From positions 47,554,001 through 47,618,000 of the forward strand of contig OZ076412.1 of the NCBI GenBank assembly GCA_964187785.1: a stretch of 64,000 bases of DNA, written 5' to 3'. Source of the DNA: Amphiscolops sp. MND2022 (lineage: Eukaryota). The notes beneath the pieces were generated by a model. That model had not been told where the DNA came from and did not search any database. It saw nothing but the letters and a program-made list of their open reading frames with translations. Both the position numbers and the translations under genes were made by a program. Below, in pieces: positions 23,048 to 50,844 of this stretch (within the stretch, counting starts at the first letter, position 1; each line of letters opens with the position of its first letter).

Positions 23048-23357
23048 TCAGACAATGAAGGTGATGAAATGGTTGTAGAAAATGAAAATCCCAGGGGAGG
23101 AAAATATAATATACATCCTAACCCTACCCCAAACTTTACTGATGAATACAGATACTAGCCAAAATATGTAAATTAAAAGCCCACAGTCCCCATCAACCGA
23201 GGTTATATATTTTAACTGGGCCCAATCTGACTGAAAATATTCATGACTGCATGGATACAATTATGCTAAATATAATAAAAACAGAAATCGAATGCAATAA
23301 TAAAGAACAACTGCGACAAGAAACAATCATAACAAAAAGAAATGAGATACAGTTCAT

Positions 23358-24579: not shown

Positions 24580-26484
24580 CTATTTCACACAGCGTGTTAT
24601 TATTTCACGATGGAGGAAGACACTTAGTCAATTGCGAACCCTGATCAAGTTCAATTTTGGCAAATTAAAAGAACCAACCTGATGCTATTTCCATGACGGA
24701 AAGGCAGAAATTTCGGTCTCAGCCAGGAAAAGAAGATAAGTTGACCCGATCAGTGATAAGTCTGTTGGGATTCTCACGCAGTTGAAATAGTTTTCAGCAG
24801 CCTCTGAGGTTAATTGTATGATTGTTGAAATTCCAGGTCAAGAAATTCCTCTCGCTCTTAAATTTGGATGACCCAAAGTCAACGGGACTGCATTCGGATT
24901 TTGGCACTCACTGACAGTGTGGATCAGTCGACGACAATGTGTAATCAGATAATCTGCTAATCAACTCCCAATTTCTTTTTGATTAAATTCTCACGAGTAA
25001 TATGAAGGGGAATGGTTAATTCGGACAATTCAAATTTAAAAATTTACAAACTGTGCTAGCTGAGAGAATAATTTCGCAATTTGTGCGAGTAGAAAGCAAG
25101 ACTAAATTGCTGACTTAAGGTCAGAGAGACTGCATCAAATCCTGACTGGAATTAACTCAAATCAGTTGAAATTCATTGGAAAATATGTTCAATTGCTAAT
25201 TATGACATTGAAGCAGAACTATATTGGACACAATATAAACAACTGGATTTCAAAGATGAGTACGATACTGTGATTAGATGACGTAATGGCCGTTACCATC
25301 TGTCAATCATTATTATCATTTACTTAAGCTGACTGTACATCCGCTTGACTACTACTTATTATTTACTTATTAACAATTACATAGTAGGACAATAATTCCG
25401 TTTGACTGCAAACGAATACATGTACTCACTTATTGGTAAAGTTGGTCCGGCAAAACACCCAGCCTCATTCCTCAATATTGTGACGTCACACATGTTGAAT
25501 GACCAACGGTCAACCGGACTGCATTCAATTACTTACATGCACACAATCGCTTGGAGAGAATTAAAATCACTCCCACTTTGTGACGTCATTCACGCTGTAT
25601 GACCACCGGTCAGCTGGACAACAATGACTTACTTACTTGAATTCATCCCTTTGGCTGGGACACAATGGGCCTCTGGACTGAAATGAAGTAATTACCAGAA
25701 ATTATCCTCATTAAAGGACGCTGAGTCCATTTGACCGCATCAATTCCTTGACTCTCACACAATATGAAAATTTAAACCAAATTACGGGTATTGACACAGA
25801 TAATTCACTTCGTACAAGAAACCTTTAGTACATGAAGAAGTCGTGGCTAAATACAAATTAACAAAAATTCAGATTTCACGCTTTTCCTAAAAAATCTACA
25901 CTGTGATGTCTTCTTGTTCAATTGAACCTGCCAGTGAGATTGTCAAGTAACAACATTTCATTTTCGTAATCCAACTTTAACCGCGATCATCATATCTTTT
26001 CTTCAGTCATTATCAGTTATCATTTAGCAAATTAATTCGGTTTCATTTATTTAATTTCATTCTTTCTTTTTCATTCATACATCAACGCCCTCTGATTGGT
26101 CATCACGCGGACTGTCGTTAGGCAGACCGACTGTCTTTGAACTACTAGTATTGACGAATATTAGTGATTGTAAACACTAATCCGACTGGTTAACACCGCT
26201 TAATATATCTTTGAAGGGGAAAGCAAACTACCTTCAAGTGGTACTTGACGAGTGGTTCTCTCAGATCATTCATAATTTGTTGATGACCAACTTATTTTAT
26301 TCGACCCTAAAAGGGAAAGTTAAGGAAATGTTTTGGAGGATTTCCCTCCACCCGTTCCCGCGGAAAGAGGGAGTTGACCCAAGGTCTAACGGACTAGAAC
26401 GATTCAGCCATAAAATCCAAAATCTAGTAATCAGTCGCTCAAGATCGAACCAAGAAACTTCTCCTCAGCCGATACAGCAGAGAT

Positions 26485-27312
26485 ATGTCTCTTCAATTCA
26501 AGATAGAAGAATATCCAAGATCCCTAGTCAGCTCAGCCTACGCTTCCTCTGATGAAGACATGGACATAGACTCAGTGACTTCGATCCAATATCAGTGGGA
26601 CAGGGAATCGGGTGATGATGACATTCAAGTACTGGCCTGTTATCACGAGAATCCACCGTTCCCCCCGCAACTTGTAGCAGGAAGGACAATGACGACCAGC
26701 CTGGCCCAATGTCTTGATGACTTGAGCTTGCCGTCAACCCATTGTAATGATACCATTGACACTTTCACCGAACCCTCAGGTGAGCTGGTCAATTGGCCGA
26801 TAGGGCACCCACCTGCAACTTATGACCATCAACCAATTGAATACCATCCAATCGCAGACTGTGGTCAACTCAACCCAGTAGTCGAGTCATCCGCTCCACC
26901 CCCTTTGATTGACCAAATGCCATCCTATCTGTACGAAAACCAGTACCAACCTGGGCACTACAACGACCAGTGGGCACGTAATACTCACATCACCGACCTA
27001 GCTATTTCAACTAGCGGTTCCTGTGGACAACCCAACGATGTGTACCACTCTGGCTGTATCGTCTGAGGCAAGTCTTTCCCAGAAATCACTGAAGAAATTA
27101 CGCTGGGATACCTAGAAGGCAATCACGTCACGGGCGAAACGTACGACCAACGGATGGAGAGGAGACGAGCGTTTCAAGCTGGTATGAAGGCAGGTTCCTT
27201 CATTTTAGTCCCCCGGGGAGTGTCGCAGGCTGCCGCCTGTGACGGCACATACTACCAGGTCACTCCAACTAATGACCAAAGCAACCCCGGACCAGGAGTC
27301 TTACCTATATAA
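26485..27312 (+). CDS. Element 1 third ORF (about 275 codons, one internal TGA) running through the PPT into the 3' LTR
   Basis: ORF 26485-27066 continues in frame after TGA 27064-27066 as GKSFPEITEE...RRRAFQAGMKAGSFILVPRGVSQAAACDG...LPI, ending at TAA 27310-27312. Confidence 0.55.
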
Positions 27313-28792
27313 AACACTCTCAAACTTTTAGAGCCTCAAAACAGTCAACTGACATTTACTTGTATTGATAAACTGATACAATATTAATTGCAAGCAATAT
27401 CTAATGTTTTACTAATTTGACCAGTAGTCATGTAGACCGTATGAAATGTTCATTGTATTTATTTGACGTCTTTCATGGTGCAAAAGGAAACACATTCTGC
27501 TATGAAAGCGTTGCAGTCTAATTGACGTGTTGTCCACCATGATCACCTACGGCGCTAATAATGATTTTAGTACACTCATGCAGTCATTGTGACGCATTCT
27601 CGTATTTTAACTTTATGTAACTAGCAGTGCTAATTAAGCTATTTGGTGCCGTCACTTTGACGTTAGGTCAACATGTTCTTTCATGCTGTTTGATTTCCAT
27701 TTGATATGGATATTTTGACGCAATGTAGCATCGCGTACATGAATTCACTAGTGATAGTTCGTAAACCATTTAAACTATTTCAATTCTAATTTTAGTGCAT
27801 TACGTAATGTGACGCAATGTATGATTTGTAGCTATTTATAGCGAATATGATGTCATGTAAAAATTTAGGTCTTTGACATTCCAAATAATGTGTGTCATGG
27901 TCCGAATACTATATATACTCGGATGCATTTGTGGATGTAATCATTGTTGATATTGCGAACGCTATTAAAACTGACAATTTGATACACTTTACCATTAGTC
28001 AATTCATTGTTGAAAATAAAACGATTTTCTTCACTATGCCTTCAACTAGAAGGCAGAAAGCTAAAGAAAAGCGAGCAAGGCAATCAGACGTAATGTCAGA
28101 TTTTGAAAACCTTGATGTTATGCTTGGGAGCTATTCTAGAGATGCTCTAGTAGAGCTAAGTAATGTTAGTGATGTAGAAAGGGACTTTGAGTCTAGTAGA
28201 CGCCAGCAAAATACTGATCTAATTGAAGGGAACCTCAGGTCACTTTTAAATGCTAATGAAAGCGAGAACAGTGAAATCACTGCAGAAACTATGAGGGTGA
28301 TTAATTCAGAAATTTCCTCCCAAATGTCTAGAAAAATAGATGAAATTAGATCTGACTTAAATTTGCAAATATTGGATGCTATTAACTCAGCAATTCAAGA
28401 AAAGGTGCTTCCTTCCATTGAAAATTCGCTAAAACCAGTTAAAACAGCTTCAAATGCAAAATGGGACCTTCGGTCAGATGGACCGCAGTCGAGCAGGGTG
28501 AATAGGCCAGACCAGCAATATGACCTGAAGTCAGGGGGACTGCACAAAAGCAAGAAAGCTCAAAGGAGCAAATACATTGACCTTAGGTCAGATGGACTGC
28601 ATCTGGACAGATTCGGCCAGGATGCTCAGGAATATGACCCTCGGTCAGATGGACTGCACCAAAGCGAAATTACGCAATCTAACCTAGAAACACGTGAAAA
28701 TCGCTCTAAAATGAGTTTTAAAGAAAGTAACCGTACCAATCATCTCAGAGAGAGTTCAATAGACTCTATTGAGAGTGAAGATGGTTACGACA
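27221..28792 (+). repeat. Element 1 3' LTR (1572 bp) containing the gag N-terminal ORF (27892-28803)
   Basis: Direct repeat of the 5' LTR, preceded by TTAGTCCCCCGGGGAG. The ORF ends just beyond the LTR at a flanking TAG. Confidence 0.97.
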
Positions 28793-32184: not shown

Positions 32185-32897
32185 TAATCCAAAGCAAGAT
32201 GTACCTGGGGGGATAACAAACATGGTACTGTGTTTTAGAGGAATTCACTTCTGTGTTTATCGGAAACAAATTTAATGTGGAGAAATTCTGGTGTCAAAAA
32301 TGTAGCTTCTTGTAAATTCGAGACAAATTCCATCAATAATTTCAGGAAGGATTTTTGAAGGATGTTGATAAGAAACCATTCAACAAATTTTTCAGAATCT
32401 TCACACACTTTTCATTGGCAGCAATGTTTGTCAACGTCAACTTGTGCAATGTGACGAAGGTAATTACGTTTCACAATTTCCATCACTTAGGTGCTTGGCC
32501 ATAGATGACAAGCTCTAAATCTTGTTCCAACGATGGCGATGAGTGGAGAGGTAGAACTTCATTTTGTATGTTAACTGATTGGCAGCATTAGCAAAGTTAA
32601 GAGACAAGGTTATTCCCCCAGCCCCATACCTAATTTTTAGTCAGCGCTTTGTTAAATTATAGTGACTTTTCGTCTAGTTTTTTTCAATCTGGTTGAGTTT
32701 TTCATGCCGAATATCAAAATCCAAAATTCTACAAAAAATTTAAAACTTGGCAAATTAGTCGGAAGGGTCCCCCATTCCTGGTTTCACATACTTATGCGGA
32801 ATAAAGAGTTTTTTCGAGACCTAATTGGTTATTTTTGAAACTGTGACATTTCCTGGGAAAAATTTCAACTCTTCAAAAGGGCTATTATTTTTGGATA

Positions 32898-34378
32898 TGT
32901 CGCGTTATGACTAACGCTTTAACAAACATAATTAGGTGCTAAAGTGCAGTTTATATTTAATTAACAAATAAAGAAACAAACATGAACTAGAACTAACGTT
33001 TGTTTATGGGGGAGAAAGTTGTAGATGAAGATGGCGGCCATAAGGCGGCGGCCATAACGATGGTAATAATGATGATGAAGTACTGTGACGAGAAAGGAAT
33101 TGCACAAGTGAAGAATTCTATATTATACCGCGTATATTTGAAATATGAAACCAACTATGATTGGTGAAAGATAAGCCATGCCTGCTACGCAGCGCACGAT
33201 AAGAAATGCTTGGCTGTATATATACGGCCAACGCAGGCGAGGAGATTGAGACACTTATTGAAACGGACAGAGCTTAAACTTAAAAGCTCTCGTTTCTCTT
33301 CACTTCTCTTCCACTTCTCTCCCCTCACCCCTGCTCTTCTTTCTTACTTTACCCCCTTTCCTCTCCCTTTACTATTATCTTCCCCTTCAGACTTAGAAGG
33401 TCTATTTCTCGCCTTCACATTTCAATTCAGATTTCTATTTAACTCAACAAAACTTCTTGCTTTATAACTCAGATCCAATGATTCTCTTTTAATCCTACCC
33501 TTGCATCTTAGAATATTTCTCCACTCATCCTTGATTTAACTTCAACTTCCAGAACCAATCTTCCCTTACAAGAAATTTCTAACTTAGAAATTTCTCTTCA
33601 ATCTCGTCTCCGGTTTGGTGAGTCTGACTATTTAGACCTTTCAGTAGAGATTTCACTCTCTCTGAAACTTCAACTTTAGCTATTTTCCGCTGATTTCAAT
33701 TCTGCGGTTGACAAAACTTTAACTTTGGTTATTTTCATTAGAACTAAATAGTTCTATAAGGTTGACGTTACATAAACTCACATAAGAAAAGGGATGATTG
33801 AAATTTTAAAGTGCTATATTATGAAAAAGTCTTAATGCTATTCAACTTTCTACTGAATAGAGACATCTAAATCAAAACTCTTCCGTTTAAAATAGTACGG
33901 ATTTGTAAATTTTGTTTGAGAAAAAGATTTCCGAAGAAAAAGGGAAATTCTCATTATTTGTAAATAGTTTCATTTTCTTAAATGATAAATTGTAAAAGTT
34001 ATATTACTTCTTCTTGTAAAATGAAGTTGTAATCTTTATTAATCTGAGATTTGTAACAATTGCAAGAGATATGGCCATGTCCAGAAATTGTCCACTTTCA
34101 ATATTCTCAACTCATTCGTAATTAAACATATTTATTCACCATACATTTTCAGTAAACAGGAAGCTCATTTACAACCACTGCCTTGCACGACTCACGCAAT
34201 TTCTTTTGTCCGCACGTAAGCGCAAGGCACCCCTTTATCAGTAAGTTGCAAATTTATTTGTTGGGACTTATACTTGTTAAATCAATAACAGAACCGTCGC
34301 GAGATAGTACCTTGTAAAATGCAAACAAGGACTTGACAGATTAAAACTAATAAACAAATTTCACCCATGCGTGCGACA
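32898..34378 (+). repeat. Element 2 5' LTR
   Basis: TATATATA 33217-33224, pyrimidine-rich tract downstream, donor-like G|GTGAGT at 33618, AATAAA 34349-34354. Confidence 0.97.
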
Positions 34379-34381
34379 AAC

Positions 34382-34398
34382 TGGTGCGACCAGTGAGG
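34382..34398 (+). promoter_or_regulatory. Putative primer-binding site of element 2
   Basis: TGGTGCGACCAGTGAGG lies 3 nt after the LTR end. The tRNA is not identified. Confidence 0.75.
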
Positions 34399-35415
34399 CA
34401 ACTTTTTCTCTTGTAATAGAGAAGTAAATGAGCTATCTGTTAGAATCCCTACTCTCAGAAGTAAGGGTTACTTACTTATTTCTCTTAACATTACTTCTAA
34501 TTTTCTTCTTTCTCCTACTGCCTCAATATGTGGCTTCTCTAATCTATATAAATCGTAAAACTGCTAGTAAATACTCTAACAGAATCTCTCCAGCCTAACA
34601 GCTTTGGGAAGAGTTTATGCACTACTCTCTTTCTTTCAATCCCCAAAACCATTTGTTAGAAATGATTTACCTTTACGAAAATACTATGAGATTACCATCA
34701 GTCCTAAACAAGAATGAAACTGACTCTATACGCTTTATTTAAAGGCACAGTTGGGAAATTAACTCTAGTCCGGACGGACACAAATTAAGTAAAAGCCCGC
34801 CTAGGTCTCCTCGGAGGCTGTTTGAAGGCCGTGAGCCCAGTGGGTATCTTGGAACCTATGTAGCATTCCGAGTGGGAAACCTAGTATTCTAGTGATAGTA
34901 CCCAAGTGATTGCATGATAGTGATCTGGGCCCCACGCACTTAATCCTAAAGACGAGAGTAACTCCCTCTGTGAACTAGCCGTAGTTATTTTCCTAAAGTT
35001 AAAGAAAGGCTCAACGAGCGGATGAAAGACCTAGTGGACTGACTGTACTCTTCATAGGTTTTCTTTGGGTTAACTCGGAGGATTGGTATACCCCGAACTA
35101 CCCTTTTTACGATAATCTCAACACTACTGGGATTTGTAAGTATCCCCTAAACTGTGGAATCAGAGTACGAAATATAGGAAATGAGCCTAACTTCGACCGA
35201 GAAGTGCTATTTTCATTTTTGCTAGCAGCGTATTAAGGATTTTATGATTTGTCAGACCTGTCTAATAATTATCACTATTAGAATCATAGTACAAACAATT
35301 TTTACTTTAACTCTTTGCTGTTATTCTCAAAAGCCAAGAGTATCATACCTCATAGAGTCTTTGGCTTATTGTTCTTTGCTTCATCTTCTATCCCTTATAA
35401 TCTCAATAGCTCACA

Positions 35416-36870
35416 ATGGCTGCGCAAAATTACTTGGCTTATCCAGACCTCGGCAGAGACCAATTCACAGGAACAGACCCAGATCAAGATCCTGAACAAT
35501 TTATACAGCTAATTGAAAAGAAGTTCCGTTTCTCTCATGGTGATACCCCAGCAAACGGAGCAGCACTTGACGACTACAACTTCAGGAGAAAATCCTACTT
35601 TGCTACACTACTAAGAGGACCAGCAGCGGAGTGGTTCGAGACAAGTATCACAGACGCTAACACCTGGCAAGAAATCAGAGAAAGGTTCATCACAAGATTC
35701 GCAGATGGCCGAAATAAATTCAGACACAGAATGGAAGCAGAACATGTCACCAGAAGAGATGGAGAAGAGATAAAGAATTTTCTACACAGAATCAAAATTG
35801 TTGTGGGGAAAGGCTGGCCAGATGATCTTGCCGGCGTCGCACAAAACGACAGAAACGCAGAAAGAGCAGCACAAGACCGACAAAGAAGACAAAGGTGCAT
35901 CGACTACTCACTGAGAGGCCTAAGACCTCCAAAACTGAGAGAAAAGGCACACGAATATTTAATGGATCACCCGAATGCAACCTGGGAACAATTCTCCCAA
36001 GCTGTAATAAACAAAGACCTCTCCTACACGGTAACTACCGCCCTAACTGGCGGAGAATCACATTCAGACCCACTCATACAAGAAATGCGAGACGACCTGA
36101 AGGGAATCAAACTACAAATCAAAGAACAGATGAATAACACAATCAACGCAGTAGAGAAAACTGTAGACCCTAATGCTACAGGTCGAAGAATGGCCACACG
36201 ATTCTGTGGCTACTGCCGAACAAATGGGCACACACCTAACTGGTGCAGAAAGAAGATGAGAGATGAAGAAGTGAAGAAGGTTCAAAACGAAGCTAACCCA
36301 GAAAGAAGAATAACATTCACCAACGACTACAACAAAAGAACTGGACCTGAACATGGCTCTAGATTTCAACCAAGATTACCAGATTCAGAAATCAGAAAAC
36401 ATATGGCTGTGGCACATCAACTAGCACTGGCTGGAGCTATGCAGTCAAACCCTGCCTGGAATCAATACGATAGACCACAAAGAAAAAATTTCAACCCAGA
36501 ACGCCGACCTACGAATACAAGAGTCAATCCTGGTAACCAAAGATTTTCACAAGAAGGGAGAAGACCCTTCCTAAACAATTCTAACAACTCCAGAAGTGTT
36601 TCCCCTGGACCCCAAAGAGCAAGATCTCCGTTCAACTTCAACAGAGACCAGTCTAGCTCCTTTAATCGCAACATACAACCTCTTCCACCAAGAAATAACT
36701 CAGGTTTTCAAAGACCACTAGACAGAAACGAAAGACCCAACACTCCAACTCAATCTTACGAGCAAAGATTCCCAAAAACTAATGACATAGGAAGATCCAA
36801 CACAGTACAGTTCTTAGAAACCGACTACTCGGTGAACTCTATTGCCGATTTCCGCCCTTTAAACTACTAA
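35416..36870 (+). CDS. gag: Element 2 Gag (484 aa)
   Basis: Retrotransposon-gag motif LLRGPAAEWF...WQEIRERFITRF, zinc knuckle CGYCRTNGHTPNWC, and a basic N/R/P-rich C-terminus. Confidence 0.92.
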   Translation: MAAQNYLAYPDLGRDQFTGTDPDQDPEQFIQLIEKKFRFSHGDTPANGAALDDYNFRRKSYFATLLRGPAAEWFETSITDANTWQEIRERFITRFADGRNKFRHRMEAEHVTRRDGEEIKNFLHRIKIVVGKGWPDDLAGVAQNDRNAERAAQDRQRRQRCIDYSLRGLRPPKLREKAHEYLMDHPNATWEQFSQAVINKDLSYTVTTALTGGESHSDPLIQEMRDDLKGIKLQIKEQMNNTINAVEKTVDPNATGRRMATRFCGYCRTNGHTPNWCRKKMRDEEVKKVQNEANPERRITFTNDYNKRTGPEHGSRFQPRLPDSEIRKHMAVAHQLALAGAMQSNPAWNQYDRPQRKNFNPERRPTNTRVNPGNQRFSQEGRRPFLNNSNNSRSVSPGPQRARSPFNFNRDQSSSFNRNIQPLPPRNNSGFQRPLDRNERPNTPTQSYEQRFPKTNDIGRSNTVQFLETDYSVNSIADFRPLNY

Positions 36871-36948
36871 GGTCTCCGAAAAATAGAAATAGCAGCAGTG
36901 CCCCTCTAAAATTTAGTCTTAATCTTTATTATTTTGCTGCCGGAGACC
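36858..36948 (+). promoter_or_regulatory. -1 frameshift signal: T_TTA_AAC, 6-nt spacer and stem-loop
   Basis: Heptamer 36858-36864. GGTCTCCG 36871-36878 pairs with CGGAGACC 36941-36948, and inner GCAGCA 36892-36897 pairs with TGCTGC 36935-36940. The -1 frame is open through the protease LLDTGATSS (36981-37007) into ORF 37113. Confidence 0.88.
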
Positions 36949-39900
36949 CACAAAAAGATAGTGGCTTAGAAATCGAATTTCTACTAGACACTGGGGCAAC
37001 ATCTTCAATCATCAACTACAGGACCTTTAGAGAACTTTGCCAGTTTCAACAAGACCTAGAACTTAGTAGAAGCAATAACACAACACGGAACTACTCTGGG
37101 CAGATCATCCCTATGATGGGATACATCACCCTCAAACTCTACTACGATTCCGATGGACAACATAACTTCCCATTAACAGTCTGGATAACAGAGATGAAAA
37201 CCCAAAACCTCCTGGGAATGAATTTCTGCCAAGAACAAGTTAACAAAATACACTTTGATCTCCCTGGCATAGAACTCAAAAGACTTATAAATACTTTCTG
37301 CTATGGTAGCCTACAACTCAACAAATGTTACCCCTATATATCACAAATTCTCTCAGTCAGAATTCCTCACTCAATGTATATCGAACCAAAGACGACAAGA
37401 TGTTACAAATTCGCACCAGAAAACACTAATAACTCATTTCCTCCTGGATCTACGTTCCTACCGAACAGGAAGGCAGTTTCTACTGGACTTAACTTCATAA
37501 ATGTCCTCTGCACACGATTTGAGAAGACTTTACCAATCGTCATGGAAAACAACAAAAACCATACAATCACCTTAGTAAAAGGAACTATCGGATACTCAAT
37601 GCTTGACGTATTAGACCAAGAAATTCCGAAATACCAAATTAGAAACCCGACAGAACTCGCATATGCTATCCTAAACGAAAACGAAGAATACAACGACTGT
37701 TTCCTATTACACTCTACCATTCCTTCACAAGATATGAACGATTGCCTCAGAATAGAAGGAGGAAACTCGAAAACAATACTCAGCAGACCAGACCCTATCA
37801 TCATCTTCGTCCCGGCCGACCTAAAGCCAGCCAAAGGCTTCTCAAAAGAAATCCTAACGAAAATACCTTCACTTAAGGATACATGCGCAAAACAGAAACC
37901 ACAGAAAGGAGAAACCATACCCTACTGGGACGAAACTCTGAAAAGATTTATATATGTTCTGATTACGAAAGCAAAATCAAAAGACAAGATTGACCCACAA
38001 TTACTAGTTCAATCTCTCGAAACTCTAAAAGCACACGCCAAAATGAGCGGCATCAAAACTATATCCATGCTACGGGAAGCCTCAGAGCTAGAAGACTTCC
38101 AATGGCAAGACGTCACTCAACTCATTCAAGACGTATTTGCATACTCAGAAATACAACTCCGAATTTATACAAGAAACGAACTAGATGTCTATGCCATGAC
38201 TACAAGAGGAGACCCCGAATACGTACTAGAAGATGAGATACAACAATTTTCCGAGCAATTTCATCTCAAACATAGAGAGCTGGAGACAGACTTCACAAGC
38301 GACGCAAAGTCCTGTCAACCACCCTGCGATGAGCAATTTAAAATCTTCAGGCCAAAAGAAGACAACGAACGACTGATCGAGTACTACCTTCAGTATCAAA
38401 ATAAAGAAGCAGTGCGATACATTAAAGAATTCGACTTTCGCTACTCAGACCTCACAGACGAAGAACTGGTTCTCCTAATAGACTTACTAATGGACGCAAG
38501 AGATGTATACTCCCAACACAAATTTGACGTAGGGAAAACCAGACAAAAATTTAACATTAAACTAGAACCTGGAGCAATTCTAAAGAGACAGAGACCCAGC
38601 AAAGTACCACTTCACCTACGAGAAAAGCTAGAGAAGCTACTCACACAACTCAAAGACGCTGATATCATCAGAGAAATGGGCGACGATGAAGAAATGGGAT
38701 CCTTATTTGTGAATCCTATTATACTACAACCAAAACATGACTATGTCAAGCTGATCATAGATGCGAGATATCTAAACTCGGTGACAGATCTAACAAATTA
38801 TTCCTGGCCCTTAGAACCGATCCAAACCATAATGACACTAATAAATGGAAACATCTTCTCAGTAAGTGATCTCTCCTGTGCATTTCACCAAGTCCCATTA
38901 GACGAGCCCACGCAAAAACTCACCAGCTTCATCATTGGCGGAAAACAATACACCTTCACCAGGGGATTCTATGGACTCAAGGGATTACCAAGCTTCTTTA
39001 GCAGAATGATGACTATCCACTTCGAACCCCTCATCAAAAGGAAACAGGCAATTACATACATCGACGACACGTTGATGCAAGCCAAAAACAAACAAGAAAT
39101 GTTCACGGTAATTCAAGAATACCATTACTTACTGCGGAAAGCCGGACTCAAGGCAGCACCAGATAAGACACTCTTCTTCTTAAGGAAAGTCAAGTTTTTG
39201 GGACACGTGATAGCAGCCGAAGGAATACAACCCGTCGCAAAACGAGTAAAAGACCTACACAATCTCAAATCACCAAAGACCAAAACCGAAGTGAAAAGCT
39301 TCTTAGGAGCTTTGGGCTTCTATAGCTGCTACATCAAGAATCTTCATGTAGATAGTCGACCTTTTTACGAACTCACCAAGAAAGATACAAATGTTTGCTG
39401 GAACCAAGAACACGAAGACCTTTTCCAGGAAATAAAGAAAAGAATTACCGAAGACACAGTGCTCGCAATACCCTCGACAAAATACCCCTTTCACATACAC
39501 GTCGACTCGTCAAACGTTGGGACAGGATGTATCCTCATCCAACAATTCCCAGAAGGGAAACGGATCATTTCCTTCAACTCAAGAGTTTTCGCAAAGGAAG
39601 AACAAAAGATGTCCACACTACACAGAGAATTATGTGGCATAGTCTCAGCTCTTCAGACGTATGAACACTACATCATCGGATCTCCCTTCCCCATCTATCT
39701 ATACTGCGATCACAAGCCGATTCTTTATCTCTGGGGAAGAAAGGGACAAATTTCACCCCGTTTTTTTAGGTACCAAGTAATTATATCTAAATTCCCGAAT
39801 CTCAAGATAATTTGGACTCCAGGAAGCAACCTAGCCTTCCCTGATATACTCAGTCGAAACGTCTCCATCGAGGAACACAAGAAACATCAACTCAGTCACA

Positions 39901-42368
39901 AAGTCATCCCAACTGACATACACTTTTTCGACGAACATGGAACCCAAGTACACTACAAAATCAAACACGAAGAAAATGAAGAGACATCCAAGAACGACTT
40001 TTACCCCATCTTGTACGAGAAGGGAAAAGAACGGAAAGTACTTCATCTCCAAAATGATGGGAATAACTTCACAGTTAACTCTATCTACGAGGAACCTAAC
40101 CTGCCGAAAGTAGAGTCAGCACAGAGTTGCCTCGACGCTGGAAGAGAACTTGGAAAATTCGAAGAACTAAGAATCAGGTCAGGAACACGGGATAGCACTT
40201 CGGATTTATCACAAAACACTTACAGCTCCATCAACAGTGATACGGATGACGAAGCCCTCACAGACAATCAGAGTCAAGAAATAAACGAGACCAACTACGA
40301 GCTCAACACAGAAGATCCCATCGCACGTAACCCAAGTCTTCCCAAAAACGCGAAGGCAATAGAACACCTCGATCTACCTACAAATTCAACTGAAAAACAA
40401 AAGACACCAACACAGGAACTTGTCAGACAACTTGATAAACTATCCAAAGAAGTAGAACTAAACGTTACAACGATCTTACAAGAACAAATAAATGACCCGG
40501 TACTCAGCGTGGTCAGACAATGGGCAAGAACAGGAAACAAACCCGAACCAAAATCACCAGAGTTACAACACTCAAAAGGCCTCATGCGTTACTTTCAGGA
40601 ATTCGACAGATTATCTATAGAAGGCCAAGGAAACCTCCTCTGTTATAACGAGCCAACTGATGACCCAACAGACGAGAATCTGAGAATCTGTCTACCTCTC
40701 TCTCTATTTTTAGCTTGCTTTCGTATGGGACATTACAACGACCTCGGCGGCCACATGGGAGCAGAAAAGACCTTCCTCAATGCTAAGAGATTTTACTACT
40801 GGCCAGGGATGCACAACTGGATCTGAGCCCTAACACAAGATTGTGTTAGCTGCCAATCTAACAAATCCAAACAACGGAGAAACAACGAAGTCCCACTGGA
40901 AGACTGCGAAACCGAAACTCAAGTATTCAGAACCATCCACATTGATCACAAAGGACCACTCAATCCTCCCAGTCGTGGAAATTCACATTGCCTTCTGATC
41001 ATCGACGCCTTCTCACGTTACCTGATGGCATACCCAGTCAGAGACACAGGAGCACAATCTACAATCAATGCGATGGAAAAATGGATTATGCACTATGGCA
41101 TCCCTCAATCTATCGTACATGATAGAGGAACAGCTTTCGTGAACACTGAATTCGTCAATTGGACTAAAGAGTTTGGCATTACACTTCGACCAAGAACCGC
41201 ACACTCACCCTGGACAAATGGCAAAGTAGAAACTCAAAATCAACACATTGCAAGATACTGGAGAAACTTCCTAAACGAATCAGGAAACAACTGGGCCCAA
41301 CTAGCTGCCAAATTTGCATTCGCCCACAACACAAGCGTCAACTACACGACTGGAAAGTTCCCCTACGAGATAGTGTTTTGCAATAAACCACTGATACCTA
41401 TGAGTCTGAAGCTGGGACTCTACAGGAACAAAAACAAGAACTGCAAATCACAATTCTGTCAAGGATTACCTCCTCATTGCCATAGCAAAAACCAAGTCAA
41501 AAACGAACTACTAAATGGACTATTACGACCACAACTATCACAAAGCTTATTGGAACGAGAAACAGCCTTCAAAAAGGTCTACTCATCCACATATGAAAAG
41601 TGCAGAAAACAAACAGCTCAATCACACGCCTACAGGAACAGATTTAAACTTGGGAACCACCTCAACATTGGACAAAAGGTTCTGCTAGAGAACCATCGAA
41701 AAGACCTCTCCAAAAGCCAAAAACTCCAACAACTGCGACTAGGACCCTTTACGATTACCAAACGAATTACAAATACAACTTACCAAATAATGGAAGATCA
41801 AAACCCCGAGAATCTCCGAACTGTACATAGGAACCATCTAATAGAATACTTTCCTAAAGAAGAAACACTCCCCCCTCTTATCGAAGAATACACTACTCCC
41901 CACCGTGGAGACACGGATTTTTATAACAATCTTGTCAAAGGAAGAATTGAACAACTTAATGTTTCAGAACCACAAAAACTCGGAGACCTCTGCATATTGC
42001 CAGTACGGAATCAACAAAACCAAATACTTGCCCGCAAAAGAACGCAAACCCCCCAGAGCACAGACTCTGGTATCATCTCTCCAGAAAATCAGTTGTTGTC
42101 AACTCCCAAGACTCCCGATCAGCCTTCGACATCACATCCTCAAAACGCAGCAACCCCTATCCTGACGTTAACTCAACGTCAACCAACTCCAGCACCCCCA
42201 ACTAACACCCCGGCATCGTCTACCAAGTCAACGACTCCCTTGCAAGAGTTACGAAAGGCTGTTGCCCGCCAAATAGAGAGAAATCCACGTTATCAGCGAG
42301 CACAACCCAATCAACCAGCACGACAGTCCATACTTCGTGAAAGGACTAGAATTGGTTACAAAGAATAA
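36864..42368 (+). CDS. pol: Element 2 Pol: protease, dUTPase-like remnant, macrodomain, RT, RNase H, integrase; one in-frame TGA at 40824-40826
   Basis: DTG (PR), YIDDTL (RT), HVDSS...RELCG...YCDHKP (RNase H), HMG...DCVSC plus IDHKG / HDRGTAF / VETQN (IN). ORFs 37113 and 41025 are in the same frame, separated only by the TGA. Confidence 0.95.
37770..38170 (+). other. TARG1/OARD1-like macrodomain embedded in Pol between PR and RT
   Basis: RFIYVLITKAKSKDK...SLETLKAHAKMSGIKTISM...FQWQDVTQLIQDVFAYSEIQLRIY parallels human OARD1 RYIYYLITKKRASHK...SLEAMKSHCLKNGVTDLSM...[24 protein letters not shown] (recalled sequence). Confidence 0.85.
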
Positions 42369-42929: not shown

Positions 42930-43625
42930 CTACTCAATCTCCAGGAAACCTCCCTTCTCTGCAAGTCGCCGCAGCTGAGCCGCCCGCTCCCCCATTGTCC
43001 ACAATGAATAGAGGCGGGTCCACTGACCCCTCTCAAAACTAGTCAGCTGCGAGTAGCCACTTATGTAGGCTCGCAGCTGGAAGACGACTATTTCGCCGAG
43101 AGAGGACAGGAGAGTCTGCTCCCAACGGGCCCCCCAGTTAGCCCGCAAGAAACTAGTTAGAGCATTTGGACCGGGAGGCCCAGAAACAGAAAACCCGGGG
43201 GTACCCTGAAGGGAACTAGTTAATGAAGCCCAGTTTTCTAGGCGGTCGATATCCCTATGGGTAAATAAACCCATAAAACTTTGATCCCCCGGGCTCTCCA
43301 AAACACCCTGCGAGATGGTAGAGGGAGCTTGCGGAAAAGGGCCACTAGTCCTCGGGGCCACAAACGCCACAAAAGACCCACCCCCAGAGGTCCCTGCCTG
43401 AGAACCTGATGACGCGGGAGCAGAAGAACTGGTGCGCGCTCCGCTCGACGAGGACGGCCCAGCTGACGACGACGATTGTGGCGGCAAAGAGGTAGCGGCA
43501 GTGCCCGACACAGACCCTGGAGCAGTAGTCTCCTCATCGGTCGAGGATTCTTCGTAATAGTCGCTATAGTTGTTGTTGTTGTTGTTGCTCATCCCTAAAT
43601 ACAAATTTGATTTATTTAAAGTCAT
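42930..43625 (-). CDS. Antisense accessory ORF of element 2 (220-231 aa; S/G/P-rich N-half, W-rich helical C-half)
   Basis: Intact ORF in a locally GC-rich island. Minus-strand TATAAA 43639-43634 upstream of ATG 43592, and minus-strand AATAAA 42803-42798 downstream. Confidence 0.65.
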   Translation of the reverse strand: MTLNKSNLYLGMSNNNNNNYSDYYEESSTDEETTAPGSVSGTAATSLPPQSSSSAGPSSSSGARTSSSAPASSGSQAGTSGGGSFVAFVAPRTSGPFPQAPSTISQGVLESPGDQSFMGLFTHRDIDRLENWASLTSSLQGTPGFSVSGPPGPNALTSFLRANWGARWEQTLLSSLGEIVVFQLRAYISGYSQLTSFERGQWTRLYSLWTMGERAAQLRRLAEKGGFLEIE

Positions 43626-44087
43626 GCAAAATGTTTATAATTATTGATCGAAGTCAACCATATATGTATCACTATTCAACTTAGTCATCAGATATAAAAT
43701 ATAATATCCTACCCGGACATTTGTCTAGTTTACTACGACGACTCATGAAGTCGTAATCCTCTCTCCTCTACAAATACCCCCAAAAACGCAATGAAATAAC
43801 TGATGATTCCATTCTCAGATTTGCTATGTTTGATGCACACACGCCACAAGGCATAACAGCTCACTGATGATCATAATATTCAAAATTGACAACCGACTTT
43901 CCCAGATAACTGATATTCAGAAGGAACCCTCAACACAGAACATAATCATACAAGCCTAAGCAATCGCAGAAGAAGAGAGTGAAACCTACACGTGTGTGCC
44001 AGCATCACCTATCTACCCACTACTGGAGAGTCTACTATATAATAACACACCTACCGAAGTCTTCACAAGAGCCAAGTCAGTCCTTTA

Positions 44088-44483
44088 ATGTCCTCTCCCG
44101 CAGTTGCCGTATTTCGAGGAAATAAGTACTACTTCCACACTCAATTTCAACCTCCGGTTCCTTGGAAACCCATACAACTCACGGGTGAATACGAAATACA
44201 GTCAATCTTTTACGAGATCACTACCTCGGCGATACAAGTCCGTATACTCACACCAGAAGACAAAGAAGCACTTGTCCTCTTCCCTATTCACTTCGGGTCC
44301 AAGGAATACGCCTACCTATTCCTATCGTTCCAACAATACATACTCCAACACCCCGCCGTCCTTAAAGACAAGGCTTTCGACGACTTGGTTTATTTTATGG
44401 ATATCACCCTAGTAACTAACCCCTTTGAAGAAGAGGTTAGAATCAAATATCTTCACACCCTAGTTGAGACCTATGATGTTTAA
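44088..44483 (+). CDS. Hypothetical accessory protein (131 aa)
   Basis: Intact ORF with globular-looking composition. The ATG overlaps an upstream TAA (TAATG 44086-44090). Confidence 0.55.
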   Translation: MSSPAVAVFRGNKYYFHTQFQPPVPWKPIQLTGEYEIQSIFYEITTSAIQVRILTPEDKEALVLFPIHFGSKEYAYLFLSFQQYILQHPAVLKDKAFDDLVYFMDITLVTNPFEEEVRIKYLHTLVETYDV

Positions 44484-44817
44484 AATACAACTCAAATTCC
44501 TCTGGCGTCACCCGGAAACAAACACACTTCTTGAGATCCTCTCTATAGCCTGGAAAGAGAGCGCCCCCGCACTTCAGATTGAACTCCACAGCCTCCGACC
44601 ACATCAAACGGGACATTGGCTCATCCCTGTCGCCACAGACTCGACAGAAGCAGCAGATCTTGCGAAGGCGCTAACCGACTACAGGGAGATCGCTTACTTA
44701 GATCACGTTCACCCTCTGACCCTTCATCTCCTCAGCAAGTTAATCGATTTCCTCGACGCTCAGAGACGTAACAAACACTCTCCCAGTCTAAAATCAATCA
44801 GTGATAACTACAGCTGA
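44473..44817 (+). CDS. Hypothetical accessory protein (about 114 aa)
   Basis: ATG ATG at 44473/44476 overlaps the end of the previous ORF. Intact reading frame. Confidence 0.5.
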   Translation: MMFKIQLKFLWRHPETNTLLEILSIAWKESAPALQIELHSLRPHQTGHWLIPVATDSTEAADLAKALTDYREIAYLDHVHPLTLHLLSKLIDFLDAQRRNKHSPSLKSISDNYS

Positions 44818-45366: not shown

Positions 45367-47514
45367 ATGAAATTATTTTACTTACTCTTTTTATGCGCCC
45401 ATTACGCGCCCGTTGTGATATTACAACGTCCAACGCCAAACCTCGCTAGCGTTGCTAAAAAACTGCGAGTAACTCATTTCGACTGCGGCGAAATGACCCA
45501 AAATAAACTCTACGCATTGAATCAAGTTGAACAATGCAATGTGGCACCTGAAAACTTAGAGGTAAGTCGTGCGAGCGTAACGTTATACACTAAACATTTC
45601 CGCCGCACTATCAACGCCACTATGTGCCGTGTGAAACATCAGAGTGAAGAATGGCATTGTGGTTATCACGACCACTCCAGTATGTCAATCCTACACGACG
45701 GAATCACCAACGATCTTTCCCTGTCACCCGAAACCTGCAAGGCAATGGGTGAAGGCAAAGAAGTCATAATCCATGGACAACCCCTCAAATTTAAGAAAGG
45801 AGTGAAACAAATACAGACGAGAAACGCCAAATACGGAAAGAGTTGGGACGGTGTACGCGACCCAGATACCCGAAATGAATGCAAGACAGGTGGCTGGATC
45901 AAAAGAGAAACATTCGAATCTCACATCCAAGATGCTGAATTATCAGTAAAAACTCGAGATGGAAAAGTCCTGACTCCGTTTCAGATGGTCCTTCCCTGCC
46001 CCTTAGAACAACTAGGTTGCGAAACGACGTCACTGGACCCATACGCCTACACATGGGCGGAGCCCGATAATTGCGTGCTTGCAGTACATAGGAAAGAAAT
46101 CGTGAACATGATCAAACACGGATCTAACTACTATATTGTAAGCGGCAACGACTCCACTACCAAATTTTTATTCGAAGTCTACAACAGACCACAAAAGTAT
46201 TGCAACAAACCAGACGATGTATACCCGACCAACTACGAATCCCTGTACGTTTCAATCCAACTTGGTGGCTTCGACATGACGTCCGGCAGACGACTCGGCA
46301 TCTCCATGGGAGAGACATCTAAACTACAATATTATTCACCCGAAGATGGTTCTGGTAATGGCCGAATCCACCTCTTTTGAGGCCCGAGCGACCCCAACCC
46401 TAATACACCTCATTACCTCAACATGGATTACGAGTTACACCAAGGGACAAAGCTTGATTATCTCTTCTTTGAGAGCACTCGTCTCCTCGAAGCTTCAGAA
46501 ATCCAGCTCCTCAAAGCACAATGCGAACAAGAAAGAACTCAAATCCTTACTATTTTGATGCTATCAATGGAAAATCCTCGCCTCGCCGGATACATGCTCA
46601 CGGGAAATCGCTCAATGTTCCTGAACACAGATGGCAGCCTCGCTTGGCTCTACCACTGTCCGGAATCCCACTCACCTCTTCACACGATGAACCGATGCTA
46701 CGACCGCATACCCATCTTCTACAAAGGAGTGGTTGCCTTCGTGGACCCAATCACCCGACAGACCTATCCTAACGCGAACGCCCAAAATTGCAGCGATCGC
46801 ATTAAGAACCTCTTTCAATTGGATATGGAAGACAAAGACTCCTGGTTTACCCTCACTCCTTCACCCGAACATCGCGACCGACCTGCTATCTTCGGACCCA
46901 AAGACATACAACCAATGATTACTAGATCCTTCCCTGGTTCACAAGACGCGGGAATGTACACGCCTAAACAACTCTCAGAATTTTGGGACAACATCCTCAT
47001 CAGCGCAGCGTCTCGCAACGCCCTCCAGAAGTTCTCACGAGAGCTCATCACACCCTCAATGGCCCATAGTGGACCTGAATCATTCGCGTATTATGCACCC
47101 CGTACCGATTTTTATGTTGACGGCATGATATCACCCGGTTACTTCAAAAATCAGTTCCTTGAAACATTCGGAAGTATATCTTACGTACTAGAACTTTGCG
47201 GCGCGTATTTTGGCGCCTTTCTTTTCATTAAGTTCGTAATAGATATCACGGTACTCGTCTTCCGATACTTTGAACTTCGTCACCTTACAGGTAATACACT
47301 GAGCTTCACTAAAACATTGCTCAGTGCTTCGTACAATCTTTTCTTTACCTCAGTTTTAACTTCTGTATTCACCCCGCGGGCCCCTTACGAGGATAGCGTT
47401 GAAGATAAAAACGCGAAAACTGAAGATAATGGAAAAGAAGTAGAACTCCAAGCACTGAAGAATAAGGAAGAATCACTTTATCCCTCAGTACAGAGCTTCG
47501 TAGCTCCAATATAA
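45367..47514 (+). CDS. env: Envelope glycoprotein (about 715 aa), class III (herpesvirus gB / chuvirus G-like) by motif; one in-frame TGA at 46378-46380
   Basis: Signal peptide MKLFYLLFLCAHYAPVVIL, N-terminal FDC...C...TMCRV...WHCG pattern, Cys-rich ectodomain, C-terminal TM (VLELCGAYFGAFLFIKFVIDITVLVF). ORFs 45367 and 46423 are in the same frame. Confidence 0.85.
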
Positions 47515-47560: not shown

Positions 47561-48142
47561 AATCTAGAACCACTATTCGACCTACCAAGCCTGGACGACG
47601 ATACCCTGGATCCTATCCCAGAAAGTGACCTAGAAATCGAACCACTATCTCCTTCAGACTTTTTGACACCAGACTCGTCTACAACAATTACCTTTCTTCC
47701 AGACCCTCCTGACTCAACGGTCCCATCATCACCCTCAAAATCTCCAACTCCAACTTTCACACCTACGCCATCCGACCAACTCCCCTTTCCTTTGTCATTC
47801 ACAGGAGACATACCACCAATCCCGTCCGCACAACATCCTCCTAGATTTGGTGGAAAGGACATCAGAAGAAACACACCACAAAAACACTATTACGAATGGA
47901 ACAACAAGATAGCCGATGAAGCACCCTTACAGAAGCAACATAAAAGGGAATACTTCACTAGAAGAGCCAGATACGTTAAAAAACCTAGATTTAACGCGAA
48001 CCTAAAGTATTCTCTACTCCCACAGTTTTCAACCTGGAAAATCGTCTTTTGGGACAACAAAAGACAAGAATACACTATTGAGAACCCTGCACTGAAGGGA
48101 CAGCGGCTGACAGTTCCCTTAAGATCCATATCTGCACAATGA
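47561..48142 (+). CDS. ATG-less ORF (about 193 aa; acidic then P/S/T-rich then basic) starting at a splice acceptor
   Basis: The frame is open from 47561, immediately after TTACTTTTAG (47551-47560). No upstream in-frame ATG. Confidence 0.5.
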   Translation, partial: NLEPLFDLPSLDDDTLDPIPESDLEIEPLSPSDFLTPDSSTTITFLPDPPDSTVPSSPSKSPTPTFTPTPSDQLPFPLSFTGDIPPIPSAQHPPRFGGKDIRRNTPQKHYYEWNNKIADEAPLQKQHKREYFTRRARYVKKPRFNANLKYSLLPQFSTWKIVFWDNKRQEYTIENPALKGQRLTVPLRSISAQ

Positions 48143-49076
48143 GCCAAAAATTAAACCCAAATGCCACCCCCTTCATCCCAAAACACAAACCCTACCTACC
48201 GATCCCTAACCCCGACTGGCCACCTATGCCTGAAGAAAACGATCAAGAAGAACATGCAAACCTCGAAGGAGTGGAAAGACTAAATATGTGGATTAGTGAA
48301 TGGGAGAAATCAACTAGTACCTATAACCAGGGAACAAAAAGCACACCGCTTCGAAAGTCCTTCCCTTTAACGGACATTAATCAACCCCAAAAGAAGTTAG
48401 AAAACCGAATCAAACTGCTATGTACCTCAATCGAAGAGGCACGAGATAAACGTCAACAATTGGAAGTCACTATCTTCGATTTGCGAGCGACAATCAAACA
48501 CCAAAGCTCCCTCCTCAGCAGAGCGAGCCAGATTGAAGCGAACGGTAAAGATTTTATCACTTGGCAAGTTTCCGCCTTCTCCACACTTTACCGAAAAGCA
48601 AGGACCTCTCCAGACGATCCCTTTCACAACATCAAAAACAGCTTCGCGAGCCCTATTTACCCAACATACCTATCAGGCTGCAAAATTTCCTTCAGAATAT
48701 TCCCTTACGGGATAAACATCTTCCGTGGGACCCACTCTTCTATTAGCTGTGAACTTCATTATAGCGACTTCACTCACCCACAAACATGGCCCTTTGATAA
48801 AACAGTAGAAGTCGAAATACTTGATCAGAAGGACGAAGGCAACAAGTGGTCCACACTTTTCCCAATCAACCCCCACAACCACGAAGATATCTTCACAATC
48901 TCTACACGCACCCGAACCTCCTCAAAGAAGACTTCATCCCTCATACGAAGTTACTTGTCAACTTCAGAGAAGCATTCCTAAACAATGACTCTATAATATT
49001 TAGAATCAAATTTAAAAAACCTTCCCCTAAGTCACTCTCCCTACATAACTCCCCCTCCTTTCAGTCTGACCCATAA
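48139..49076 (+). CDS. PAM2 motif + coiled coil + TRAF/MATH domain protein (1-nt frameshift at about 48860-48930)
   Basis: N-terminal KLNPNATPFIP (PAM2-like), heptad segment LENRIKLL...LRATIK, then ITWQV...FASPIY...KISFRIFPYG...GTHSSI...WPFDKTVEVEILDQ. The MATH end DFIPHTKL...FLNNDSIIFRIKF is in the -1 frame (ORF 48846-49076). Confidence 0.85.
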
Positions 49077-49101: not shown

Positions 49102-49113
49102 AGGGGGGTGAGC
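49102..49113 (+). promoter_or_regulatory. Polypurine tract of element 2
   Basis: AGGGGGGTGAGC directly before the 3' LTR. Confidence 0.8.
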
Positions 49114-50594
49114 TGTCGCGTTATGACTAACGCTTTAACAAACATAATTAGGTGCTAAAGTGCAGTTTATATTTAATTAACAAATAAAGAAACAAACATG
49201 AACTAGAACTAACGTTTGTTTATGGGGGAGAAAGTTGTAGATGAAGATGGCGGCCATAAGGCGGCGGCCATAACGATGGTAATAATGATGATGAAGTACT
49301 GTGACGAGAAAGGAATTGCACAAGTGAAGAATTCTATATTATACCGCGTATATTTGAAATATGAAACCAACTATGATTGGTGAAAGATAAGCCATGCCTG
49401 CTACGCAGCGCACGATAAGAAATGCTTGGCTGTATATATACGGCCAACGCAGGCGAGGAGATTGAGACACTTATTGAAACGGACAGAGCTTAAACTTAAA
49501 AGCTCTCGTTTCTCTTCACTTCTCTTCCACTTCTCTCCCCTCACCCCTGCTCTTCTTTCTTACTTTACCCCCTTTCCTCTCCCTTTACTATTATCTTCCC
49601 CTTCAGACTTAGAAGGTCTATTTCTCGCCTTCACATTTCAATTCAGATTTCTATTTAACTCAACAAAACTTCTTGCTTTATAACTCAGATCCAATGATTC
49701 TCTTTTAATCCTACCCTTGCATCTTAGAATATTTCTCCACTCATCCTTGATTTAACTTCAACTTCCAGAACCAATCTTCCCTTACAAGAAATTTCTAACT
49801 TAGAAATTTCTCTTCAATCTCGTCTCCGGTTTGGTAAGTCTGACTATTTAGACCTTTCAGTAGAGATTTCACTCTCTCTGAAACTTCAACTTTAGCTATT
49901 TTCCGCTGATTTCAATTCTGCGGTTGACAAAACTTTAACTTTGGTTATTTTCATTAGAACTAAATAGTTCTATAAGGTTGACGTTACATAAACTCACATA
50001 AGAAAAGGGATGATTGAAATTTTAAAGTGCTATATTATGAAAAAGTCTTAATGCTATTCAACTTTCTACTGAATAGAGACATCTAAATCAAAACTCTTCC
50101 GTTTAAAATAGTACGGATTTGTAAATTTTGTTTGAGAAAAAGATTTCCGAAGAAAAAGGGAAATTCTCATTATTTGTAAATAGTTTCATTTTCTTAAATG
50201 ATAAATTGTAAAAGTTATATTACTTCTTCTTGTAAAATGAAGTTGTAATCTTTATTAATCTGAGATTTGTAACAATTGCAAGAGATATGGCCATGTCCAG
50301 AAATTGTCCACTTTCAATATTCTCAACTCATTCGTAATTAAACATATTTATTCACCATACATTTTCAGTAAACAGGAAGCTCATTTACAACCACTGCCTT
50401 GCACGACTCACGCAATTTCTTTTGTCCGCACGTAAGCGCAAGGCACCCCTTTATCAGTAAGTTGCAAATTTATTTGTTGGGACTTATACTTGTTAAATCA
50501 ATAACAGAACCGTCGCGAGATAGTACCTTGTAAAATGCAAACAAGGACTTGACAGATTAAAACTAATAAACAAATTTCACCCATGCGTGCGACA
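49114..50594 (+). repeat. Element 2 3' LTR
   Basis: Same length as the 5' LTR with one visible substitution. AATAAA 50565-50570. Confidence 0.97.
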
Positions 50595-50844
50595 GATAGA
50601 AAAACTTTTTTCAGCTCGAGGCCCTTTGAACTTTTTGGCACTGTGCGACTTTTTTCAGAAAGATTCACTTTTCTTAAGAGGTCCTGTTTTTTTCGGTACA
50701 GTAGAATTTATTCAAACGAATCCTTGACGCTTTCAAGTACTTTTGCTCTCTTTGAGCTTTCAGCGGGGCCAGAATTTTTGAAAGTTTGACTTTCGACAAT
50801 CATTTCTTGAAAGAATCAATGACCTTGATTTTATGATATTTTGG

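Follow-up and report, generated by a model that had tools for sequence, protein, structure and literature searches.

The window analyzed here, a 64,000-nt stretch of the Amphiscolops sp. MND2022 genome, contained a 17.7-kb Ty3/gypsy element with an env gene. The element had TG...CA LTRs, a 4-bp target duplication, a pol gene in the order protease, reverse transcriptase, RNase H, and integrase, and an env gene located 3' of pol, which are the features expected of a Ty3/gypsy element with env. Both LTRs were 1481 nt long, with one mismatch between them. As listed in Table 1, gag and pol (with the gypsy domain order) were followed by one antisense and two small ORFs and then by env, orfZ, a TRAF gene, and the polypurine tract. 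The TRAF gene (48139-49076) was the last gene of the element and was located between env and the polypurine tract. Thus, the proposal in the first-pass annotation of this DNA that the gene is retroelement encoded was confirmed by its position inside the LTR element and 3' of env. The copy in the window carried a single in-frame stop in pol (40824-40826) and a single in-frame stop in env (46378-46380), so we consider it a young but defective insertion.

Table 1. Features of the env-bearing LTR element, in window coordinates
Feature	Position	Strand	Remarks
5' LTR (TG...CA)	32898-34378	+	1481 nt; target-site duplication GATA just before (32894-32897)
Candidate primer-binding site, starting TGG	34382-34399	+	Inferred from its position directly after the LTR
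gag	35416-36870	+	PF03732, 25.4 bits
pol: protease, TARG1-like macrodomain, reverse transcriptase, RNase H, integrase	36786-42368	+	Pfam; TARG1/OARD1, E 1e-11
Antisense accessory ORF	42930-43634	-	Without a Pfam family; in subfamily D, 70% identity and dN/dS 0.22
orfX (44046-44483) and orfY (44464-44817), overlapping small accessory ORFs	44046-44817	+	dN/dS 0.08-0.09 versus subfamily D
env, Monjiviricetes-type fusion glycoprotein	45367-47514	+	PF24664, 39.9 and 76.2 bits
orfZ, 193 codons	47561-48142	+	Without Met; dN/dS 0.065
PAM2-type motif, residues 3-14	48145-48180	+	In low-confidence, likely disordered N terminus
Coiled coil, residues 81-127	48379-48519	+	Shorter than in the host gene
TRAF-C (MATH) domain and tail	48556-49076	+	Frame broken near 48,890 in the window copy; stop 49074-49076
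Polypurine tract	49102-49112	+	Sequence
3' LTR	49114-50594	+	Followed by GATA (50595-50598)

Several other features of the element and of the window were recorded. The macrodomain in pol (37860-38171), which was located between the protease and the reverse transcriptase, was missed by Pfam, and it is possible that it counters ADP-ribosylation. Besides the TRAF gene, the element carried four more accessory ORFs (one of them antisense) at 42930-44817 and 47561-48142; these were under purifying selection and had no known family. Specifically, orfX and orfY matched no Pfam family above the cut-off, and in the ESM Atlas, orfZ had no usable match and the TRAF protein matched nothing more specific than generic MATH/TRAF clusters. 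A second LTR element occupied 15273-28792, with LTRs of 1573 nt that were 99% identical and with gag, protease, reverse transcriptase, RNase H, and integrase. It also had a weak dUTPase match and extra ORFs without a Pfam family at 23441-24442 on the minus strand and at 26431-27066. Elsewhere in the window, we observed an approximately 1.1-kb element (7492-8647) bordered by arrays of a 16-nt repeat in inverted orientation and a peptidase M16 C-terminal domain exon (2050-2676; PF05193, 46.8 bits).

The ATG at 48139 starts the frame MSQKLNPNATPFIP. TRAF2 to TRAF6 carry an N-terminal RING and zinc fingers, and TRAF1 has no RING. The first-pass annotation described the product as a RING-less protein with a coiled coil and a TRAF-type MATH domain. 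Profile matches, the predicted structure, and the heptad pattern all agreed with this description, and neither a RING nor a zinc finger was found in the protein by profile search. The broken 280-amino-acid frame of the window copy matched PF21355 with 30.3 bits (cut-off, 27.4 bits), and the piece 3' of the break matched no Pfam family on its own. Further protein analyses were done on natural, unbroken sister genes. In all five that were tested, PF21355 scored 33 to 47 bits and PF22486 scored 38 to 47 bits (cut-off, 32 bits). Hence, one of the two MATH profiles suggested in the annotation was recovered, but the other, PF00917, was not matched.

The PDB sequence matches of the protein were TRAF1 to TRAF5 (best E value, 3e-6). 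The best Foldseek matches of its AlphaFold model were TRAF5, TRAF4, TRAF1, TRAF3, and TRAF2 (E 2e-11), so that the PDB and Foldseek matches together covered TRAF1 to TRAF6. The model, a monomer with a mean pLDDT of 71 and a pTM of 0.50, consisted of a flexible N terminus, a helix at residues 36 to 60, a long helix at residues 81 to 127 with high pLDDT, and a beta-sandwich. Residues 1 to 35 formed neither helix nor strand (pLDDT, 39 to 55), which placed the PAM2-type motif in a flexible region. Ile or Leu occupied 9 of the 12 a/d heptad positions in the coiled coil. By analogy with TRAF proteins, the coiled coil presumably mediates trimerization; the residues that form trimer contacts in TRAF2 were partly changed in the element protein.

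A one-base break that separates the last MATH strands from the rest of the domain had been noted in the window copy, and our comparisons agreed with this. The copy departed from the sister frame near codons 251 to 253, at about 48,890, and the last strands lay in another frame that ended at 49076. To place this break, we scored 138 of 476 candidates from a genome search and obtained 25 copies with at least 90% identity. As the first-pass annotation had asked, we looked for an intact frame in sister copies; 21 of the 25 had one continuous frame of 310 to 312 amino acids. The remaining four, the window copy among them, were broken, and the positions of the breaks differed. Programmed slippage at a T_TTC_CCA heptamer, which had been suggested as a candidate, did not hold up: the break was about 30 nt past the heptamer, and the TTTCCCA context (48858-48864) was common to 24 of the 25 copies, unbroken ones included. 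The frame break is decay and not a programmed frameshift.

How the TRAF gene might be expressed was suggested by the region around orfZ. In 8 of the 11 copies read, subfamily F included, orfZ opened directly after a pyrimidine-rich TTTAG, and the other three copies had earlier frame breaks. The TTTAG is likely to be a splice acceptor. In addition, the TGA of orfZ overlapped the start of the TRAF gene as ATGA in all 11 copies from subfamilies A to E; in subfamily F, the two were separated by a gap of 7 nt. Judging from these signals, a spliced bicistronic RNA with stop-restart at the ATGA is the likely route of expression. A TGGGA located 89 to 103 nt before the start in all nine copies was considered as a reinitiation signal, since it resembles the calicivirus signal, but it encodes a conserved Trp-Asp of orfZ and could not be credited.

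Subfamilies at identities of about 58% (B, C, and D), 31 to 35% (E), and 20% (F) had the TRAF gene at an unchanged position, 3' of env and orfZ. Disruption of all copies with a dN/dS near 1 had been named in the first-pass annotation as the pattern that would speak against a functional gene; instead, dN/dS (Nei-Gojobori method, with dS partly near saturation) between diverged subfamilies was low. Whole-gene values were 0.13 to 0.22 in seven of the eight comparisons with usable dS, the closest pair gave 0.37, and the comparison of subfamilies A and E was saturated. The TRAF gene is under purifying selection. Among 14 young copies, there were 26 nonsynonymous and 16 synonymous variants; such counts are expected after insertion and are not in themselves a mark of strong selection.

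Relative to subfamily D, the TRAF gene was the fastest-evolving gene in the element, with 59% identity compared to 92 to 95% for gag, pol, and env. Values of dS were about 2 for orfZ and the TRAF gene and 0.55 to 0.71 for gag, pol, and env. This gap suggests that the 3' module was swapped between lineages. Subfamily F (L039 and L040; more than 100 matches), the larger family in this genome, had at this position a TRAF that was host-like and lacked PAM2. Because subfamily F thrives without PAM2, the motif is not required for keeping TRAF cargo.

The closest host gene was a single-copy, intron-containing TRAF gene on contig C3. The nearest named relative of this gene, with 72% identity across the MATH exon, was annotated in the acoel Convolutriloba macropyga, which makes an acoel host likely. 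The C. macropyga orthologue (482 amino acids) and three other full-length or nearly full-length relatives had no RING or zinc-finger family, and some of the RING-less host relatives retained a short Cys-containing remnant. The canonical TRAF RING and zinc fingers were absent from the host orthologues P0053, P0043, P0046, and P0048, as well as from the element protein. We saw no RING exon in the 20 kb upstream of the C3 gene, but this stretch was filled by other elements, and the RING-less call rests on the orthologues.

The first-pass annotation proposed that the gene was captured from the host and called for a phylogeny against host TRAFs. In a midpoint-rooted tree of 55 MATH-region rows, in which the element lineages formed long branches, all element TRAFs fell together with the host clade that lacks the RING, and a branch with 100/99 support set both apart from 23 canonical TRAFs. 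Partial near-duplicates, multi-MATH matches, and P0175, whose MATH region is frameshifted, were left out of this tree. A shared K-S/T-F-P-L segment agreed with this grouping, and the LTR copies lacked the final host-gene intron, as would follow from an RNA intermediate. Together, the tree, the shared segment, and the intron pattern bear out capture of a host gene. The element protein was only about 20% identical to the host protein, and its coiled coil was shortened. An AU test of one versus two captures by the LTR elements did not reject a single clade (P = 0.28), nor did it show one. Since the donor orthologues were already RING-less, the loss of the RING was inherited and not made by the element, which removes the basis for the suggestion that the element had produced a dominant negative by deleting it. 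On contig C10, at about 42.09 Mb, the exons of a host gene encoded a TRAF-type RING and zinc fingers (L056:178-405 and L051:1381-2926); a search of 20 kb did not reveal the MATH exon of this gene.

A second element class also carried a TRAF gene. This was an unrelated, multicopy inverted-repeat element of about 17 kb (contig C1, about 78.424 to 78.441 Mb; L059, L035, and L060, and also L033 to L038, L041, and L049), in which two 7.8-kb arms that were 99.65% identical flanked a central, intron-containing TRAF gene. This gene was a derivative of the same host gene and kept the last intron in the same phase. In the tree, it was nested within the host rows, which is an indication that it was captured independently. 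Of the two ORFs in the arms, neither had a Pfam family, and one had a PHYHVL stretch reminiscent of HUH endonucleases.

The MATH domain in the lineage of the window element was remodeled. The R/K-P loop was present in 46 of the 55 tree rows and absent in all seven rows of this lineage; the other two rows without it were decayed relatives. Moreover, the strand after the loop was replaced by a new, well-conserved segment. In TRAF2 structures, the region of the loop is the receptor-peptide site, and with this groove altered, the partner of the MATH domain has probably changed. The canonical receptor-peptide groove was therefore lacking in this lineage, and a host-like groove was kept in subfamily F and in the TRAF of the inverted-repeat element.

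These differences bear on the suggestion that the protein dampens TLR/TNFR-NF-κB signaling. A study of acoel immunity reported that TLR, MyD88, IRAK, and NF-κB are missing from acoels (PMC12849515), and with the groove remodeled as well, an NF-κB decoy is unlikely. Our own genome scans with PF00554 (Rel) and PF00020 (TNFR) gave no matches, but the controls were silent too. The TIR-domain genes at L096 to L100 were without obvious receptor parts, and one of them was a single-exon ORF of 621 codons whose N terminus was helical.

The claim that the protein begins with a PAM2 motif was upheld in part: the contact residues were kept and the pattern was not due to chance, but the hmmscan score for PF07145 was below the cut-off of 20 bits. 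Specifically, the window copy scored 16.3 bits by hmmscan (13.7 to 16.6 bits over the copies), and the genome scan gave 19.5 bits, or 20.3 bits with neighbors. In shuffled sequences, the pattern occurred within the first 8 residues in 5 of 200,000 cases. When the genome (1.07 Gb) was scanned with PF07145, 39 of the 46 matches were the first codons of the TRAF gene; the two best of the other seven looked like host PAM2 proteins, one of which is presumably eRF3.

The pattern of conservation was consistent with that of known PAM2 motifs. We compared 10 diverged N termini that were found with L3-N4-P5 as the search anchor, so that these three residues are invariant by construction. A7, F10, and P12 were invariant in all 10, and positions 6, 8, 9, and 11 and all positions from 13 on varied. 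According to crystallographic work, PAM2 contacts are made by positions 3, 4, 5, 7, 10, and 12, and positions 6, 8, and 11 are free; the element motif has the published contact residues, and its variable sites match the solvent-exposed ones (PMC2854688). Position 9 was Pro and not the preferred Glu. Subfamilies A and B were almost saturated at the synonymous sites of the motif (pS, 0.68), which indicates that the constraint acts on the protein. Two of the 10 N termini came from PAM2-led, intron-less relatives (P0117 and P0175) that were not found in this genome; for P0175, there was no relative among viral contigs. These two relatives are members of, or very similar to members of, the clade that is sister to the lineage of the window element (96/88 support), so the motif is old. 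No PAM2 motif was present in the host gene, in subfamily F, or in the TRAF of the inverted-repeat element, and the motif was thus gained a single time, on one branch.

Candidate partners for such a motif were present. The genome contained two MLLE matches, one in PABP (E 3e-19) and one in a UBR5-like gene, a label read from the translation, that had HECT-like exons and a PAM2-like stretch of its own. The host PABP MLLE matched that of human PABPC1 with an E value of 6e-20 and had Arg in place of the signature Lys of PABPC1. A complex prediction for the host PABP MLLE and the N-terminal 32 residues, made without alignments and without folded controls, scored 0.29 against a mark of 0.34.

We favor the reading that the TRAF protein is linked to PABP-bound mRNPs. 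In the full form of this reading, which we regard as moderately probable, a trimer would display three PAM2 motifs, bind PABP on mRNPs, and recruit a MATH-bound factor or compete against the PAM2 proteins of the host, from which the element RNA would benefit. The element took a RING-less host TRAF, to which an N-terminal PAM2-type motif was added. The protein would be translated from a spliced 3' transcript via stop-restart at the ATGA overlap and would trimerize through its coiled coil, by analogy with TRAF1 to TRAF6. Its PAM2 could then bind the MLLE of PABP (or UBR5), and with three PAM2 motifs per trimer, the protein may bind with higher avidity than eRF3, PAN3, or Tob. The altered MATH domain might carry a new partner onto mRNPs, or host PAM2 proteins might be displaced, and the element RNA could gain stability, translation, or escape from silencing.

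The alternative that survived best places UBR5 in the role of the partner. Here, PAM2 would recruit the MLLE of this HECT ligase, and the protein would be a substrate adaptor in which UBR5 stands in for the RING, so that a MATH-bound restriction factor is ubiquitinated in the manner of lentiviral accessory proteins. The UBR5 MLLE binds PAM2 peptides. The second MLLE match in the genome, with its HECT-like exons, is in line with this idea, and a MATH surface that is remodeled yet conserved fits a new substrate. However, no sequence feature favors UBR5 over PABP, and PAM2-type motifs usually partner with PABP, which is also by far the more abundant protein. We consider this alternative unlikely. 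The occurrence of MLLE in UBR5 has been described (PMC2854688).

Somewhat less likely still, in our view, is that the protein acts as a decoy in the TRAF signaling of the host (cell death, JNK, TIR pathways, or NF-κB) that poisons TRAF trimers or fills receptor tails, with PAM2 merely localizing it. The genome does have a TRAF gene with RING and zinc fingers and eight TIR-domain matches, and the planarian Burro elements are described as carrying MATH together with BIR and BCL2 domains (PMC6431247). The host-like groove in subfamily F and the inverted-repeat element also suits a decoy, but this fits subfamily F better than the lineage of the window element, in which the R/K-P loop is gone and the next strand is replaced. 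Also counting against a decoy are a donor that was RING-less beforehand, a shortened coiled coil, low identity to the host protein, and the reported lack of TLR, MyD88, IRAK, and NF-κB in acoels. Finally, a neutral passenger that was acquired by readthrough or template switching and is now decaying might be seen in the broken copies (the window copy included), the stops in many older copies, and the fast evolution of the gene, but this was largely refuted by the low dN/dS at dS above 1, the retention of frame and slot across subfamilies with saturated synonymous sites, and the motif footprint, and it is very improbable.

That env-bearing gypsy elements can carry MATH_TRAF_C cargo is already known from Burro/GYPSM1 of planarians, the env of which is related to mononegavirus fusion proteins (PMC6431247). 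Burro is about 30 kb long, with MATH, BIR, BCL2, ankyrin, and an in-frame env encoded within a single polyprotein or upstream of it, and in Dugesia tigrina, MATH is in an accessory ORF (PMC6431247). In contrast, the element described here is 17.7 kb long and has separate ORFs, with no BIR, BCL2, or ankyrin in those scanned. Its TRAF is a separate last gene after env that combines a coiled coil with PAM2 and is traced to a host-lineage TRAF. Like the element protein, TRAF1 and engineered RING-deleted TRAF2 and TRAF6 have a coiled coil and TRAF-C without a RING; the element protein differs in that its RING-less state was inherited from the donor, its groove is remodeled, and NF-κB has been reported missing in the group to which its host likely belongs.

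Among viral proteins, ORF111L of the iridovirus ISKNV is likewise a virus-encoded, host-derived coiled coil and MATH protein with Foldseek matches, but this fish DNA virus protein keeps its RING, binds TRADD, induces apoptosis, and, in the available text, has no PAM2 (PMC3352826). The PAM2 proteins eRF3, Paip1/2, Ataxin-2, Tob, and PAN3 share with the element protein a hydrophobic residue at position 3, N4, P5, A7, F10, P12, and a flexible N terminus (PMC2854688). Here, a mobile element encodes the motif as a fusion to a scaffold that is predicted to be trimeric. The Anakin elements, BEL elements with a chuvirus env, are also LTR elements with an env from a negative-strand RNA virus lineage, as far as described (PMC12440569); the element in the window differs in its gypsy domain order and its five further accessory ORFs. 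In open-access literature text, we found no description of a PAM2-TRAF fusion, an identified RING-less donor, a double capture, or this element.

Genes that are repeatedly captured mark pathways that restrain parasites. A retrovirus-like family (hundreds of matches) took one host TRAF, and so did a giant inverted-repeat element; this double capture singles the TRAF out as a target for knockdown and as a bait for finding partners. PAM2 on captured cargo would give a retroelement a route to PABP or UBR5, which we did not find described in open-access text. Tentatively, and with more doubt than conviction, we suggest that the acoel-specific RING-less TRAF could be the hub of an antitransposon or antiviral pathway in animals without NF-κB, that two unrelated element classes captured it as a counterdefense, and that one lineage rewired it as a trivalent MLLE-binding adaptor linking TRAF scaffolding with poly(A)-tail control or with UBR5-driven degradation of a restriction factor. 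How acoels defend themselves without Toll/NF-κB was presented as an open question in a study whose main text is silent on TRAF (PMC12849515).

A PAM2-like stretch was also observed in an element of another type. Specifically, the gag region of a BEL/Pao-like polyprotein (L052:1105-6522, minus strand) contained ANAAPFIP, and PAM2-like motifs may be more common among retroelement proteins.
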